A stretch of 64,000 nucleotides of DNA from Deltaproteobacteria bacterium GWC2_65_14 (GCA_001797615.1 MGPV01000017.1:50019-114018), one strand, 5' to 3'. Counted from the stretch's first letter, positions 8,634 to 61,134 are shown. Program-made: numbers and translations. Notes: generated by a model not told the origin, from the sequence alone.

Positions 8634-8729
8634 TGGCGGAAGCGTGAGGGAATCGAACCCCCCGGAGACATTGCTGCCTCCCGGCCGGATTTGAAGTCCG
8701 GGAGGGCCACCAGCGCCCTATCCGCTTCC
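8634..8729 (-). tRNA. selC: tRNA-Sec (selenocysteine tRNA, anticodon UCA).
   Basis: The reverse complement reads GGAAGCGG...CCGGACTTCAAATCCGG...GGTTCGATTCCC...CGCTTCCGCCA. The anticodon arm CUGGACUUCAAAUCCAG-like is identical in loop sequence to E. coli selC, with anticodon TCA. It has a long variable arm and a ~95-nt length with encoded CCA. Confidence 0.85.
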
Positions 8730-9744: not shown

Positions 9745-9819
9745 GGGCGCTTAACTCAGCGGTAGAGTGCCACCTTCACACGGTGGAAGTCACAGGTTCA
9801 AATCCTGTAGCGCCCACCA
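9745..9819 (+). tRNA. tRNA-Val (anticodon CAC).
   Basis: GGGCGCTTAACTCAGCGGTAGAGTGCCACCTTCACACGGTGGAAGTCACAGGTTCAAATCCTGTAGCGCCCACCA folds as a cloverleaf with a 7-bp acceptor stem, T-loop TTCAAAT, anticodon loop TTCACAC and encoded CCA. Confidence 0.9.
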
Positions 9820-31087: not shown

Positions 31088-31789
31088 ATGCCGCCTGTCA
31101 AGATCCGCTGGTTCGGTCATTCCGGCTTCTCCATCCAGGACCCCTCGGGGAAGACGGTGCTGGTGGACCCGTGGTTCCAGGGAAACCCCACCGCCCCGGG
31201 CGACATGAAAGAGGTGACCAGGGCGGAGTTCATCCTGATCACCCACGACCACTTCGACCATGCGTCGGACGTGCCTGCGCTCGCACGGCAGACCGGCGCG
31301 CTCGTCGTAGCAATCTTCGAGGTGGCCGGGGATCTCAAAGCCCGGGGAGTTCCCGAGTCCCAGCTGCTCCATGGCGGGATCGGAATGAACATCGGGGGAA
31401 CCGTCGTGCTCGACGGATTCTCCTTCACGATGACGGAGGCCCGCCACTCCTGCACGCTGGGCTCACCCGCCGGCTACGTGATCCAGACCCCCTCGGGCGT
31501 CACCCTCTACCACTCCGGGGACACCGGGATCCTCCCCGGCATGGCGCTGACCGGGGAGCTCTTCTCGATCGACGTCGCGATCCTGCCGATCGGATCGGTC
31601 TTCACGATGGACTACCGGCAGGCTGCCCGGGCGGCGTCCCTCCTGAAGGCGAAGACGGTGGTCCCGATGCACTACGGGACCTTCCCGATCCTGGAGCCGA
31701 ACGCGGACCGGTTCGTCGCGGAGATGAAGAGGACGGCCCCGGGAACGCGGGTGATCGTCCTCTCCCCCGGGGAGGAAGCCTCGGTCTGA
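31088..31789 (+). CDS. Metal-dependent hydrolase of the metallo-beta-lactamase fold (UPF0173-like).
   Basis: MPPVKIRWFGHSGF.., the zinc motif ITHDHFDH, then HSGDTG and PMHYGTF. Confidence 0.8.
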   Translation: MPPVKIRWFGHSGFSIQDPSGKTVLVDPWFQGNPTAPGDMKEVTRAEFILITHDHFDHASDVPALARQTGALVVAIFEVAGDLKARGVPESQLLHGGIGMNIGGTVVLDGFSFTMTEARHSCTLGSPAGYVIQTPSGVTLYHSGDTGILPGMALTGELFSIDVAILPIGSVFTMDYRQAARAASLLKAKTVVPMHYGTFPILEPNADRFVAEMKRTAPGTRVIVLSPGEEASV

Positions 31790-31962
31790 CCCGGGCCGCC
31801 CGTATCCAGGCCCGTCCCGATTGCGCTCGGATCGGCTTCGTCGCCTCGGAGAAACTCTCCGCGATAAAGGGACCCTGGCTCGCGGGGGGAATCCCCTCGG
31901 CTACGCTCGCGATCTGCGCCCGCTCGCTGCCGTTCCGCTCGCCGCAAGCTGCACCCTGTTGT

Positions 31963-32007
31963 GGGGACACTCCTGTGTTCTTCGCGGAATACACCAGGAA
32001 TGTCCCC
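31963..32007. repeat. Palindromic hairpin element GGGGACACTCCTG-N19-CAGGAATGTCCCC (copy 1, intergenic).
   Basis: Read directly. A 13-bp stem with one mismatch and a 19-nt loop. A second copy with the same architecture lies inside clpB at about 59536..59585. Confidence 0.6.
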
Positions 32008-32039
32008 GCCGCCTCGTCGACTCCCCCCACAGCGCTGCG

Positions 32040-32159
32040 GGTCCCCGGTTGCCGGCAAAGCAGCCGCAGGAGGGTGGGCGGAGTGAGGTAAAGCGCAGCC
32101 AAAGCGTGCGTCCTCCAAGGCGAGCCACGAACGCAGCCCCCCTCCGAGGATGCGGAGCC
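32040..32159. repeat. ~120-nt intergenic repeat, copy A, with conserved termini GGTCCCCGGTTGCCGGC...GCAGG and GCAGCCCCCCTCCGAGGnnnCGGAGCC.
   Basis: It aligns with a second copy at about 46697..46809 (upstream of dusB) in the same orientation. The termini are nearly identical and the middle is divergent. It contains a conserved small hairpin CTCCG-N6-CGGAG. Confidence 0.55.
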
Positions 32160-32211
32160 GTCACCGTGGTCCCCCGCGAGCCAGGGGCCTCTTCCGGGAA
32201 GGGCGGGGGGT

Positions 32212-33147
32212 TCAGCCCAGGCGTTCGGCGACCGCGGCCATCAGCAGCGGGAAGAGGATCTCGTGCGGTCCGATCAGGTGGTATCCCTTCCCGCCGGCCC
32301 GGGTCGGCCGCGACACGACGTTCACGTCCGGGCGGTAGTGCCGGATGAAGTCCATGTTCACCGTGGTGATCCGGGACAGCGGTTTGCCGAGATTCCGGGC
32401 GACCGAGACGGCCTTGAGGAAGACCTCCGGCAGGATCACCGCGGAGCCGACGTTCAGGTAGACCCCTCCCTGCAGCCGGCAGACCATTCCGCAGAAGATC
32501 CGGAAGTCCCGGAGCGAGGCCTCCCCCGACGCCGCGCCGTCCGCCTCGGGGTGCATGTGGACGATGTCGGCCCCCAGGCAGACATGGACGGTCACCGGAA
32601 CGCGGAGCTTCCAGGCCTGCGCAAGCAGGGAGCGGTCCCGGTGCGGCGCCCGGGAGCCCGCGATCGCCCTCCCGACGGCGGCGCCGTACCCCAGCCCGTC
32701 GCGAACCCCGTCCGCCACGGCGGCGTGGATGAACCGCGCCGTCTCCTTCGCCATCCCGAACGACCCGTCCCGGAGCCGCTCGGCCACGTCTTCGGAGGTC
32801 TTCCCCGCCAGGGCAAGCTCCGTGTCGTGGATCACTCCGGCCCCGTTCATCGCCACTCCGGTGAAAAGCCCCTCCGAAAGCCCCTGGAGCAGGAGGGGGG
32901 AGAGCCCCACCTTGATGAAGTGGGCGCCGATCCCGAGAAGGACGGGGGCGTTTTGCCTCCTCGCGCGCGCGATCGCGACCGCTACCGCGCGGAAGTCCCC
33001 CGCGGCGAGGTAGCCGGGAAGTCCGTCCAGGAACTCCCCGAACGTCATTCCCTTTCGCACGGGAGCGGCGAACCCCCGCAGGGAGACCTTGCTTTTCCGG
33101 GAACGGAGCGACTCCCGGCGCAGCCGGGAGAGATCGACCTCCTTCAT
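32212..33147 (-). CDS. Hypothetical conserved protein (311 aa) translationally coupled to gmhA.
   Basis: The start MKEVDLSRL overlaps the gmhA stop (ATGA). Gly-rich motifs GIGAHFIKVG and VAMNGAGVIHD are present, but I cannot assign a family. The N-terminal 500 aa of the 813-aa track ORF is artefact. Confidence 0.55.
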   Translation of the reverse strand: MKEVDLSRLRRESLRSRKSKVSLRGFAAPVRKGMTFGEFLDGLPGYLAAGDFRAVAVAIARARRQNAPVLLGIGAHFIKVGLSPLLLQGLSEGLFTGVAMNGAGVIHDTELALAGKTSEDVAERLRDGSFGMAKETARFIHAAVADGVRDGLGYGAAVGRAIAGSRAPHRDRSLLAQAWKLRVPVTVHVCLGADIVHMHPEADGAASGEASLRDFRIFCGMVCRLQGGVYLNVGSAVILPEVFLKAVSVARNLGKPLSRITTVNMDFIRHYRPDVNVVSRPTRAGGKGYHLIGPHEILFPLLMAAVAERLG

Positions 33148-46465: not shown

Positions 46466-46696
46466 TCCTTCCTCTCCTTGTTGTGTGATGAACGCCGTGA
46501 CGGGGGGATCTCCCCCGGAATCCGGACGAAAACGGAACGAAACCGTGCGCCGCAGGTTCCTGCCGGGCACATTAAACCGTCCTTGAATACCACGACTCCC
46601 CCCCACCGTCAAGGGGAAAACCGGCCGCCCAGACCCATTCCCGATGGAGCACACTCCGCGAAGGATGCCGGAGAGGGACCCCGGCTCGCGGGGGAG

Positions 46697-46809
46697 GGTC
46701 CCCGGTTGCCGGCGGAGCTGCCGCAGGAGGGGGGATGAGCGGAGATAAAAAGATTGATCCGCGGGCGGAGGGCGGGCGAAGCGAAGCCCCCCTCCGAGGC
46801 GGCGGAGCC
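46697..46809. repeat. ~113-nt intergenic repeat, copy B (upstream of dusB), homologous to copy A at 32040..32159.
   Basis: GGTCCCCGGTTGCCGGCGGAGCTGCCGCAGGAGGGG...GCGAAGCCCCCCTCCGAGGCGGCGGAGCC, with the same termini and orientation as copy A. Confidence 0.55.
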
Positions 46810-46866
46810 CTCTCCGGAAACCCACGAGACGGGGGCAGCGGCGCGGCGGAGTGATATAGTTGGGGG

Positions 46867-57118: not shown

Positions 57119-57192
57119 TGGCTGGGAGGGAAGGGGTCGAACCTTCATCGGGGGCTCCAAAGGCCCCTGTCCTGCCGTTAGACGACCTCCCA
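57119..57192 (-). tRNA. tRNA-Gln (anticodon UUG).
   Basis: The reverse complement TGGGAGGTCGTCTAACGGCAGGACAGGGGCCTTTGGAGCCCCCGATGAAGGTTCGACCCCTTCCCTCCCAGCCA has a U1:A72 pair and discriminator G73 as in bacterial tRNA-Gln. The anticodon stem GGGGC/GCCCC carries the loop CUUUGGA, the T-loop is TTCGACC, and CCA is encoded. It lies between spoVG and prs. Confidence 0.8.
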
Positions 57193-58515: not shown

Positions 58516-61134
58516 TCAGGCAGGTCCGCGGAACCGGAACCCGGAGGCTTCGTCCGGATCCACAAGAACGGCGTCTCCATCCGAAAATTCCCCCTTGAGG
58601 ATGCGGAGAGCCAGCGGGTCCTCGAGATGCTTCGCGATCGCCCTCCGCAGCGGCCTCGCGCCGAAGGTAGGATCGTACCCAAGCTCCGCGATCCTCTCCC
58701 TGGCGGCATCCGAGAGCTCGACGGTGATCTTCCGGTCGGCAAGACGGGCGTTGAGCTCCCGGAGCATGATCCCAACGATCCGCGCAAGCTCCCCCTTTCC
58801 CAGGGAGCGGAACAGGACGATCTCGTCGATCCGGTTCAAAAATTCCGGGCGGAATTCCCGGTGCAGCTCCTCCATCACCTTCTCCCGGATCGCCTCCTCA
58901 CCCGTCCCGTAGAGCTCCCGGATCCAGTGCGATCCGACGTTCGAGGTGAGGATCGCCACGGTGTTCCGGAAGTCGACGGTCCGTCCCTTCCCGTCGGTGA
59001 GCCGGCCGTCCTCGAGGACCTGCAGGAGGAGGTTGAAGACGTCCCGGTGCGCCTTTTCGATCTCGTCGAACAGGACGACGGTGTACGGCTTCCGCCGGAC
59101 CGCCTCGGTCAGCGCCCCGCCCTCCTCGTACCCCACGTACCCGGGGGGCGCGCCGATCATCCGGGCGACCGAGTGCTTTTCCATGTACTCGGACATGTCC
59201 AGTCGGACCATCGCCGCCTCGTCGTCGAAGAGAAACTGGGCAAGCGCCCGCGCCAGTTCCGTCTTGCCGACCCCGGTCGGCCCCAGGAAGAGGAACGACC
59301 CGATCGGCCGTCTCGGGTCCTTCAGCCCGGACTTCGCCCGCCGGACGGCGTTCGAGACGAGCCGGACCGCCTCGTCCTGCCCCACGACCCGCTCGGCGAG
59401 CCGTTCCTCCATCCGGAGCAGCTTCTCCACCTCCGCCTCGACCAGCCGGGAGACCGGGATGCCGGTCCACCGGGAGACGACCTGGGCGATATCCTCCTCG
59501 TCCACCTCCTCCTTCAGGAGGCGCCCCTCCGCTTTGGGGGGGACACTCCTGTTCCCATCGGCGAGAAAACCAGGAGTGTCCCCCCGCAGGGCTTCCGCCT
59601 CCCGCTGCAGCGCCGGAAGGATGGAATACTTCAGCTCCGAGGCCCGCTCGAGGTTTCCCTCCCGCTCCGCCCGCTGCATCTCGGAGAGCGCCCGCTCGAT
59701 CCTCTCCTTCACCTCGCGGCTCTTCCCGATCGACCGCTTCTCCTCCTCCCAGCGGGAACGAAGCTCACCGGCCCTCCCGGAGAGCCGGGAAAGCTCCTCC
59801 TCGATACGCGCCAGCCGCTGGGCGGAGACCGGGTCGGTCTCCTTCGTGAGGGCCTGCTTTTCGATCCGGAGCTGGGTGATCCGCCGCTCCACCTCATCGA
59901 TTCCGGTCGGGACGGAGTCGATCTCGATCTTGAGTTTCGAGGCCGCCTCGTCCATGAGGTCGATCGCCTTGTCCGGCAGAAAGCGGTCGGGGATGTACCG
60001 GTGGGAGAGGGTGGCGGCGGCGACGAGGGCGGAATCCTTGATCCGCACGCCGTGGTGGACCTCGTATCGCCCTTTCAGCCCCCGCAGGATGGCGATCGCG
60101 TCCTCCACGGAAGGCTCCGGGACCATGACCGGCTGGAAGCGCCTCTCCAGCGCCGCGTCCTTCTCCACGTGCTTCCGGTACTCGTCGAAGGTGGTCGCGC
60201 CGACGCAGCGGAGCTCGCCCCGGGCCAGGGCGGGCTTGAGCATGTTCGAGGCGTCCATCGCCCCTTCCGCCTTCCCGGCCCCCACCAGGGTGTGGAGCTC
60301 GTCGATGAAGAGGACGACCCTCCCCTCCGCCGCGGCGATCTCCTTGAGGACCGCCTTGAGCCGGTCCTCGAACTCACCCCGGTACTTCGCCCCGGCGATC
60401 AGCGCCCCCATGTCCAGCGCCAGCACCCGCTTGTCCCGAAGCCCCTCCGGGACATCTCCCGAGACGATCCGCTGGGCCAGCCCTTCCGCGATGGCGGTCT
60501 TCCCCACCCCCGGGTCGCCGATCAGAACGGGGTTGTTCTTGGTCCGCCGCGACAGGACCTGGATCACCCTGCGGATCTCGTCGTCCCTCCCGATGACGGG
60601 GTCGAGCTTTTCCCGTCGGGCCAGCTCCGTCAGATCCCGGCAGTACTTGTCGAGGGCCTGGTACTTTGCCTCCGGGTTCTCGTCGGTGATTCGCTGCGTC
60701 CCCCGGATTCCGGTCAGGGCCGACAGCAGCGCCTCGCGGTTCGCCCCGTGCTTCCGGAGCAACCCCTCGATCTTCCCCCCCTCCGCGGCCATCGCGAGGA
60801 GGAAGTGCTCGGCGGAGAGAAACTCGTCCTTGAAGGCGTCCGCCTCGGACATCGCACGGGAAAAGAGCGGCTCCATCCGGGGGGAGAGCCCCCGGCTCAC
60901 CGCGCCGGTGACCTTCGGGAAGGACGCGGCCATCGAGGCCGCGTCGGATTCGAGGGAAGGCAGCGCCACCCCGGTGCGCGCGAAGAGGTCCCGGGCAACC
61001 CCGCCCTCCTGCCGGAGCAGCGCGAGGAAGAGATGCTCCGGCTCCACCTGGGCGTGCGCCTCGCCGGAGGCGATGCGCACCGCCTCCTGCAGCGCCTCCT
61101 GCGATTTGACGGTGAGCTTGTCGAGAGAGATCAT
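58516..61134 (-). CDS. clpB: Chaperone ClpB (Hsp104-type disaggregase; two AAA+ modules plus coiled-coil M-domain).
   Basis: 872 aa with NBD1 Walker [12 protein letters not shown]2 Walker [10 protein letters not shown], a coiled-coil M-domain and the sensor-2 GARPLRRAI. There is a ~13-aa insertion relative to E. coli ClpB near the M-domain/NBD2 junction (see findings). Confidence 0.92.
59536..59585. repeat. Palindromic hairpin element GGGGGGACACTCCTG-N19-CAGGAGTGTCCCCC (copy 2), embedded in-frame within clpB.
   Basis: Read directly: a perfect 14-bp stem with a 19-nt loop. It matches the intergenic copy at 31963..32007 in arm sequence and loop length, and in about half of the loop positions. 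Confidence 0.55.

Follow-up and report, generated by a model that had tools for sequence, protein, structure and literature searches.

Introduction

Is the long non-coding stretch between two convergent genes of this DNA the seat of a structured RNA, or is it made of mobile repeats? A sequence-only reading of the 64-kb stretch analysed here (the window) had described a hairpin element followed by an unrelated repeat, and had proposed either a hotspot for small mobile or structured elements or a composite non-coding RNA locus. The account that we regard as probable is that the spacer consists of non-autonomous, hairpin-forming mobile repeats of three families, one of them (H) REPIN-like, which lodged in a neutral convergent gap. 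The hairpin itself is no RNA gene but a REP doublet that sits within a MITE-like element and belongs to a RAYT-associated superfamily. In kind the H locus is ordinary, as the REP/REPIN class is already known, and a cellular function is not needed to explain it.

The Convergent Gap and Its Lineage

The gap runs from the stop of an MBL-fold hydrolase gene (31789) to the stop of a convergent gene for a 311-aa protein (32212) and measures 422 nt (31790-32211). The features of this locus, and of the two other window loci that hold copies of its repeats, are the following.

31088-31789, + strand, MBL-fold hydrolase gene (Pfam Lactamase_B_2)
31832-31851, - strand, 20-nt piece of the repeat A 3' arm in inverted orientation (TCGGCTTCGTCGCCTCGGAG), 19/20 to the reverse complement of the A consensus
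31872-32038, + strand, element C, a MITE-like repeat of ~120-130 nt, interrupted by H
31963-32007, no strand, hairpin H, copy 1 (from sequence, arm search, fold and family scan)
32039-32051, + strand, 13-nt junction GGGTCCCCGGTTG linking the C terminus to the A core
32052-32160, + strand, repeat A core, copy 1, 82% to the 113-nt consensus, a long imperfect hairpin that holds the SRP-like string
32168-32189, - strand, solo inverted C left terminus (GGTCCCCCGCGAGCCAGGGGCC), 95% complementary over 19 nt
32212-33147, - strand, 311-aa gene, convergent (public gene calls on identical contigs; no Pfam match)
46674-46695, + strand, left terminus of C, joined immediately to junction and A core, at a second locus between the divergent genes hppA and dus
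46696-46815, + strand, repeat A, copy 2 (core 46709-46809), 71% to consensus, centre diverged
59539-59583, no strand, hairpin H, copy 2, with perfect arms, inside clpB

The window is 100% identical over 20.7 kb to a scaffold (L001) from a Rifle-aquifer groundwater metagenome, and homologues of its proteins carry the name Candidatus Deferrimicrobiaceae. The orthologous gene pair is found in the same order in four relatives (77-85% protein identity), where the spacer is 0 nt (L128), 27 nt (L131), 110 nt of unrelated sequence (L126) or 204 nt (L129 and L130). The 422-nt spacer, which as a whole has no orthologous conservation in the related species compared, is therefore a lineage-specific acquisition, and the impression of an unusually long non-coding stretch was correct. 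The 204-nt spacer holds a different tandem repeat with variant arms, and is a related repeat that colonised the orthologous site independently. Since different repeats occupy the orthologous spacer, the site was colonised independently in different lineages. A strain contig that is 99.1% identical (L004) stops exactly at window 31867, the left edge of the repeat nest, as expected from an assembly break at multi-copy repeats.

Several smaller observations concern the same neighbourhood. The 204-nt spacer, from a relative with 80% identity (L129:4703-4906, L130:3064-3267), is built of two ~90-nt tandem units between the arms GGGACGGTCCTG and CAGGACCGTCCC. In L131 the block, syntenic elsewhere, is interrupted by an inserted PIN / PhdYeFM toxin-antitoxin pair (679-1361). 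The synteny of the 311-aa protein, which is without a Pfam match and adjoins a SIS-domain gene, is kept across Deferrimicrobiaceae. An 813-aa ORF over the spacer is a read-through artefact of GC-rich DNA.

Known RNA Families

The composite RNA locus finds no support in scans for known RNAs, promoters and terminators. At the Rfam gathering score, the whole window yields three tRNAs only. At E <= 10, the interval 31700-32300 gives only miRNA/lncRNA noise (E > 1) and neither SRP, 6S nor tmRNA, and Rfam gives nothing for 18 related loci or for a consensus-like A copy. The spacer contains no tRNA or tmRNA according to ARAGORN, it has no promoter-like site, and neither a terminator-like site nor a U-tract is present on either strand of 31600-32400. 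SRP RNA, 6S RNA, tmRNA and other known RNAs are ruled out by the Rfam scans of window, related loci and A copy together with ARAGORN. The resemblance to SRP (4.5S) RNA comes down to a short GC-rich string (..AAGCAGCC..): the string CCGGCAAAGCAGCCGCAGG belongs to the 5' arm of repeat A, which is present in at least 120 places, and it has no covariance-model match even at E <= 10. Inspected by eye, the sequence lacks the defining features of group II intron domain V, tRNA-like elements, attC, CIRCE and parS.

Anatomy of the Repeat Nest

As judged by BLAST of sub-segments against all loci compared, followed by inspection, the 422-nt spacer is a composite: parts of three families of dispersed repeats make it up, and one family is nested within another. 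Element C has terminal inverted repeats of ~21 nt (GGGCTCGCGGGGGGnTTCCAC ... GTGGAACCCCCCGCnGCGCCC) around a short non-coding unit, as MITEs do. After removal of the 45-nt H, the window C is 77% identical to one copy elsewhere (L175) and 79% to another (L168), and H is absent from all eight other C copies (L140, L168, L173, L175, L197, L211, L227, L229). Because C aligns once H is removed and the other C copies are without it, H is nested in C, just before its right end (GCCGCCTCG...). The earlier description of a hairpin followed by an unrelated repeat needs a correction: repeat A is real (32039-32188 and 46696-46836 share 70% identity, E = 5e-16), but the hairpin lies within C, and it is C that abuts A.

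The junction between the C terminus and the A core recurs at the 46.7-kb copy and in L168. Beyond the A core, the solo C terminus (32168-32189) pairs with 31870-31888 and brackets the whole nest as the outer stem in the fold of 31860-32200 (z = -3.8). The inverted A fragment at 31832-31851 gives short matches to A copies in three other loci (L152, L186, L241). Another anatomy, in which the 142 nt at 31897-32038 are one insertion into A with a GAATCCCC/GGGTCCCC duplication, is ruled out, since their left part belongs to family C with its own termini.

A fourth module, X (~62 nt, CCCAGTACGAGCTTCGCGCTGCYGGGGTACCCCCGCAGTAGGAAGAACGGGGGGCAC, with GTAG), is nested after GCGC in the A cores of L148, L190, L164 and L176. 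It is also nested in element C (L173, L211), near where H sits in the window C.

The spacer resembles another kind of bacterial repeat mosaic. BIMEs of E. coli are mosaics of REP units and other short motifs, as known from the work of Gilson, Bachellier and colleagues. The spacer is likewise a mosaic of short repeat modules in alternating orientation, and the combination of C terminus, GGGTCCCCGGTTG and A core is found in L168 as well as at both window loci (32.0 and 46.7 kb). Its modules A, C, H and X differ from those of BIMEs in sequence and are larger (A ~110 nt, C ~125 nt).

Hairpin H

Arm search and fold recover the hairpin at 31963-32007 and its second window copy as they had been described. 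Copy 1 has two 13-nt arms, GGGGACACTCCTG (31963-31975) and CAGGAATGTCCCC (31995-32007), around a 19-nt loop (31976-31994). Its only arm mismatch is C.A on the + strand and G.U on the - strand, and its fold has a free energy of -29 kcal/mol on each strand, with z-scores of -4.9 and -4.3 relative to shuffled sequences. The two are the only exact copies in the 64-kb window, where looser matches to the 13-mer (2 mismatches) are at chance level (8 found, 4.4 expected).

H is a pair of inverted REP-type units and is REPIN-like. At 45 nt it has the size of REPs (about 20-60 nt), and it shares with them the form of an imperfect palindrome that is multi-copy, dispersed, probably placed mostly between genes, and found in clusters or arrays. 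As in REPINs, two inverted units pair as a hairpin, here through the arms GGGGACACTCCTG and CAGGAATGTCCCC. The differences are that the units are 19 nt apart and the doublet is 45 nt long, compared with about 70-110 nt in REPINs, and that both window copies have CAGG where REPs have a GTAG head. REPs are extragenic by definition; in the window, copy 1 of H is intergenic whereas copy 2 lies within clpB, and an ORF-spanning test of extragenic placement is confounded by long spurious ORFs in GC-rich DNA.

A survey for further copies, which had been suggested from the sequence, shows that H and A are abundant elsewhere as mobile repeats; they are neither confined to two positions nor a conserved gene. 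The pattern GGGACAYTCCTG-N10-30-CAGGARTGTCCC is matched in at least 120 species-representative genome stretches, with many copies per MAG and a chance expectation of ~0.2 by our own calculation. Among the matches listed, all but one record are MAGs, and many are from Gammaproteobacteria (Steroidobacteraceae, Woeseiaceae and a Chromatiaceae bin with > 15 contigs). The other lineages listed are Verrucomicrobiota, Kiritimatiellia, Tepidisphaeraceae, Nitrospirales, Dyadobacter, Ca. Deferrimicrobium and Deferrimicrobiaceae. All 132 pattern matches listed have the CAGG head, which the search pattern demanded, and the loop and outer flanks differ lineage by lineage.

The copies in gammaproteobacterial MAGs sit in tight gaps between housekeeping genes, including convergent pairs. 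Several MAGs of Ca. Deferrimicrobium and Deferrimicrobiaceae have multiple copies and nested arrays. The Deferrimicrobium units form mirrored arrays of 2+2 to 4+4, equal on left and right (L112:3555-3722, L117:529-654, L067:6933-7056, L008:288-368), which suggests repeated insertion of an H copy into the loop of an earlier one.

A phage or plasmid origin of H is rejected for lack of matches in viral contigs (0) and in plasmids. Clustering of ORFs within 1.5 kb of 131 listed copies gives no recurrent family as a partner gene, and in L056 and L070 the ORFs enclosed by neighbouring hairpin pairs belong to housekeeping genes (Leu/Phe-tRNA protein transferase, methyltransferase). A literature search by exact arm sequence returns unrelated PCR primers only.

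Association of H with RAYT Genes

REP/REPIN-RAYT systems are defined by a Y1 transposase gene with copies of its own palindromic repeat on either side, and these elements and their RAYTs are described in Bertels and Rainey (2011; PMC3116915) and in PMC3337134. A motif scan of six-frame ORFs identifies two Y1_Tnp genes (PF01797, E = 2.5e-13 and 3.1e-15) among the H loci, in L104 and L078. The L104 gene (145-810, - strand) has H hairpins on both sides (112-155 and 890-937). The L078 gene has the variant GGGACATTCTAC...GTAGAATGTCCC on both sides, with a classical GTAG head. Three more homologues (L253, L254, L255) have flanking hairpins with a GGGACATTC core and three-base heads (TGC, CTA, TAC/TGG). 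Hairpins with the arm core accompany all five RAYT genes examined, which are gammaproteobacterial, and the exact 12-nt H arms occur in L104 only. The heads of the H core found alongside RAYT genes include GTAG, GCAG, TAGG and CCAG. H resembles REPIN-RAYT systems in the RAYT genes flanked by their own repeats (5/5 gammaproteobacterial loci), in its GTAG variants and in having no visible target duplication.

The lineage of the window differs in this respect, as no cognate RAYT was found in its loci. An HMM built from 120 proteins of this homologue group finds no RAYT, whether in the 64-kb window or among Deferrimicrobiaceae-type loci that total ~1 Mb, which is what would be expected for a single-copy gene. 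A search of a 50% representative library, through cluster names and contexts, returns only Planctomycetota, Gemmataceae and Binatia names and no Deferrimicrobiaceae RAYT. With none found, the dependence of H on a RAYT in Deferrimicrobiaceae is an inference. The Planctomycetota-type relatives examined (~46% identity; L256, L257 and likewise L258) have a different GTAG palindrome, GTAGGGTGTGTGGAGTCTTCGGAACACACC... (L256/L257:1770-1850), or none. Since these RAYT relatives are without H-type arms, the sharing of arms does not follow simply from RAYT homology.

The clpB Insertion

Copy 2 of H lies in frame in clpB (58516-61134, - strand), where its 45 nt add 15 residues to the linker between the M-domain and NBD2. 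The gene is otherwise intact, and all ClpB domains are detected. A 97%-identical ClpB (P0121, locus L252) is without the insert, as are most ClpB relatives (860 aa). The P0121 and window alleles differ by 33 nt and local changes, not by a clean 45-nt indel. Some relatives have collapsed remnants at the insert site (RGDTPGSPG), and others have single or double H-derived inserts there, with the peptides GDTP/GDIP ... GVSP/RSVP. H turns over at the clpB site, and in-frame insertion is tolerated there.

Rickettsia palindromic elements (RPEs) insert in frame into protein-coding genes (PMC10969869; PMC1779305). The clpB copy, alone of the two in the window, resembles them as an in-frame palindrome in a surface linker of an essential-type protein, which adds a peptide (GDTP...RSVP) and leaves the gene unbroken. 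H is set apart from RPEs by length and host, since RPEs are ~100-150 bp long and found in Rickettsia, whereas H is 45 nt long and found in a free-living groundwater bacterium. Moreover, the copy in the spacer is intergenic, and RPEs have no known sequence relationship to H. If the clpB insertions hold up, they would show how the length of a protein comes to vary through palindromic repeats in a free-living bacterium.

Repeat A

A pattern from the core that specifies 33 nt is matched in at least 120 metagenome stretches, many of them at contig ends, with copies in both orientations, also on single contigs. The 113-nt consensus, drawn from more than 100 copies in many samples, has a conservation of at least 90%, compared with 30-70% in the flanks, although that of the centre is partly forced by the search pattern. 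The core is a long imperfect hairpin with compensatory stem changes. One covarying pair is UA in 54 copies, CG in 22 and UG in 21, and another is GC in 90, AU in 7 and UA in 1. Double-change pairs number 6, compared with 2.1 +/- 0.9 in shuffles, none of which is as high (0/500); slid controls give 1-5. G.U occupies ~90 pair cells and A.C 5. The stronger conservation of the core than of its flanks and the excess of G.U over A.C would also fit an RNA under selection.

In most genomes the A core lies inside a ~250-nt element bounded by inverted TAAATACGGYAACGTAT ends, the terminal repeats typical of MITEs; these ends are absent from the window. The element is present in L174, L152 and L185 and missing from L248, where about 192 nt are absent between flanks that are 96-97% identical. 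Similarly, it is present in L167 and missing from L246 (about 250 nt, between uvrB and uvrC). The proposed hotspot of small mobile or structured elements is thereby upheld: the spacer is lineage-specific, and two of its three families vary in presence between close relatives. A crude GC3-based gene caller, which miscalls clpB, places A in sense to neighbouring genes in 29 cases, in antisense in 22, between convergent genes in 17 and between divergent genes in 7, and there is no strong bias.

Bacterial MITEs include Correia, ERIC, RUP and BOX (reviewed in PMC10969869). Like MITEs, C and A are non-coding units of 120-250 nt with terminal inverted repeats, a potential to form long hairpins, and presence or absence between relatives. 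They differ in that neither a target-site duplication nor a parent insertion sequence was found in the loci examined, and in that A is most conserved at its centre and not at its termini. No pair of A termini in the loci compared encloses coding DNA, as an autonomous parent would. No target-site duplication is recognisable at L174-L248, at L167-L246 or at clpB, where the diverged flanks leave room for one of 1-3 nt, and no clean excision junction is definable for H, A or C.

Every A core examined also has AGGAGG, ~9 nt and then GTG AGG TAA (window 32071-32091; consensus positions 18-39), a strong Shine-Dalgarno-like site with a two-codon ORF behind it, the conservation of GTG AGG TAA being forced by the search pattern.

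Proposed Origin and Alternative Explanations

In the account that we consider probable, the repeats would have accumulated at a selectively neutral site, between the ends of the two convergent genes. Element C, bounded by its terminal inverted repeats, may have settled there with an A core, an extra A fragment and a solo C terminus alongside, and the 45-nt H would have inserted into C. Most likely, H spread in trans through a single-copy Y1/HUH transposase (RAYT). Such an enzyme would recognise the folded single-stranded hairpin, cut at its foot and re-insert it without target duplication, often into or beside other hairpins. A cognate RAYT in this Deferrimicrobiaceae genome would presumably move H, and other enzymes may move A and C, if any still do. 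Against this account stand the absence of a RAYT from the lineage loci searched, the CAGG head in place of GTAG, the intragenic H copy, the 33-nt difference between clpB alleles, and the fact that neither a target duplication nor a clean excision junction could be defined. The different or missing palindromes beside the ~46%-identical RAYT relatives also count against it, as do the conservation of the A core and its excess of G.U pairs.

The evidence on repeat A bears on another explanation, in which a small structured RNA, encoded in many copies or made by a mobile element, for example with a guide or regulatory role, would account for the A core and perhaps for the whole nest. The contrast in conservation between the 113-nt core (at least 90%, more than 100 copies) and its flanks (30-70%) would suit it, as would the stem covariation, the common G.U and rare A.C pairs, which favour folding of one strand, and the fold of 31860-32200 (z = -3.8). 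We nevertheless think it quite unlikely. The copies match no Rfam family and have no promoter- or terminator-like site, they lie in both orientations relative to their neighbours (29 vs 22), also on single contigs, and they are present or absent between close relatives. Those in the window have diverged to 82% and 71% of the consensus, with altered centres, and the central conservation is in part a product of the search pattern. REPIN hairpins, too, regularly show compensatory change (PMC3116915). The hairpins could instead have been co-opted as cis-acting RNA structures, such as 3' exonuclease barriers or terminators that insulate the convergent genes, and the spacer kept for that reason. The place of the nest between convergent gene ends, the high stability of the hairpins on both strands, and the tight gaps, including convergent ones, that H occupies in Gammaproteobacteria agree with this. 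REPs are also known to stabilise upstream mRNA. Yet relatives manage with a spacer of 0-27 nt, neither a U-tract nor a terminator-like site is present, H also occurs inside the clpB coding region, and A also occurs between divergent genes (46.7 kb). Co-option, which seems to us rather unlikely, would explain the retention of the hairpins and not their origin, and is compatible with the mobile-repeat account.

The origin of H itself might be different if H were independent of RAYT here, as a minimal MITE with the 13-nt terminal inverted repeats of a DDE-type IS or as a transposase-binding array, its likeness to gammaproteobacterial repeats being convergent. The Deferrimicrobium arrays of up to 4 + 4 units, spaced by ~19-23 nt, do resemble the sets of binding sites found at the ends of transposons, A and C look MITE-like, with terminal inverted repeats at their ends, and a RAYT was not found in the lineage loci searched. 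We assign this origin a low probability. Against it, convergence is unlikely to produce exact identity over 12 nt, equal left and right units fit nested palindromes better than transposon ends, no coding parent element lies between arms in ~2 Mb of loci, and a target-site duplication is nowhere recognisable in the sites compared. A chance product of GC-rich composition with no real element behind it would agree with the GC-richness of the genome and the chance-level number of loose 13-mer matches. It has next to no probability and is refuted by BLAST (E-values down to 1e-16), by fold z-scores of -4.3 to -5.5 and by the copy numbers of H and A, each found in at least 120 stretches elsewhere; in addition, the exact 13-nt arms occur as an inverted pair at two sites.

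Implications of the Mobile-Repeat Account

As the locus shows, uncultured groundwater Deferrimicrobiaceae carry at least three or four interacting small hairpin-repeat families, one of which has the 12-nt arms of gammaproteobacterial RAYT-flanking REPs. In the published description (bioRxiv 10.1101/2022.05.22.493013), REPIN-RAYT systems are for the most part inherited vertically and specific to a lineage, whereas the 12-nt H arm occurs in several phyla. A broader and more tentative proposal, possible although we would not count on it, has three parts. The H arm (GGGACAYTCCTG) would belong to a REP superfamily common to at least six phyla (Gammaproteobacteria, Verrucomicrobiota/Kiritimatiellia, Planctomycetota, Nitrospirota, Bacteroidota and Deferrimicrobiaceae). 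In Deferrimicrobiaceae its doublets would nest and also enter clpB in frame, with strain-variable peptides, as an RPE-like behaviour outside Rickettsia. The A core, ultra-conserved over 113 nt, may be an undescribed MITE-borne structured RNA. If the H superfamily is true, it would imply either transfer of REPIN-RAYT systems between phyla or an extreme conservation of RAYT recognition, and either outcome runs against the vertically inherited, lineage-specific picture. Should the cross-phylum sharing of arms hold, it would offer a tractable case for the movement of REPIN-RAYT systems between lineages.

In annotation, neither the 422-nt gap nor the 813-aa read-through ORF nor the SRP-like string is to be called a gene; all three are assembly-breaking repeat debris. 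The three tRNAs at 8638-8729 (- strand), 9745-9816 (+ strand) and 57122-57192 (- strand) are the only Rfam matches of the window, and comprise one selenocysteine tRNA (74 bits) and two ordinary tRNAs.
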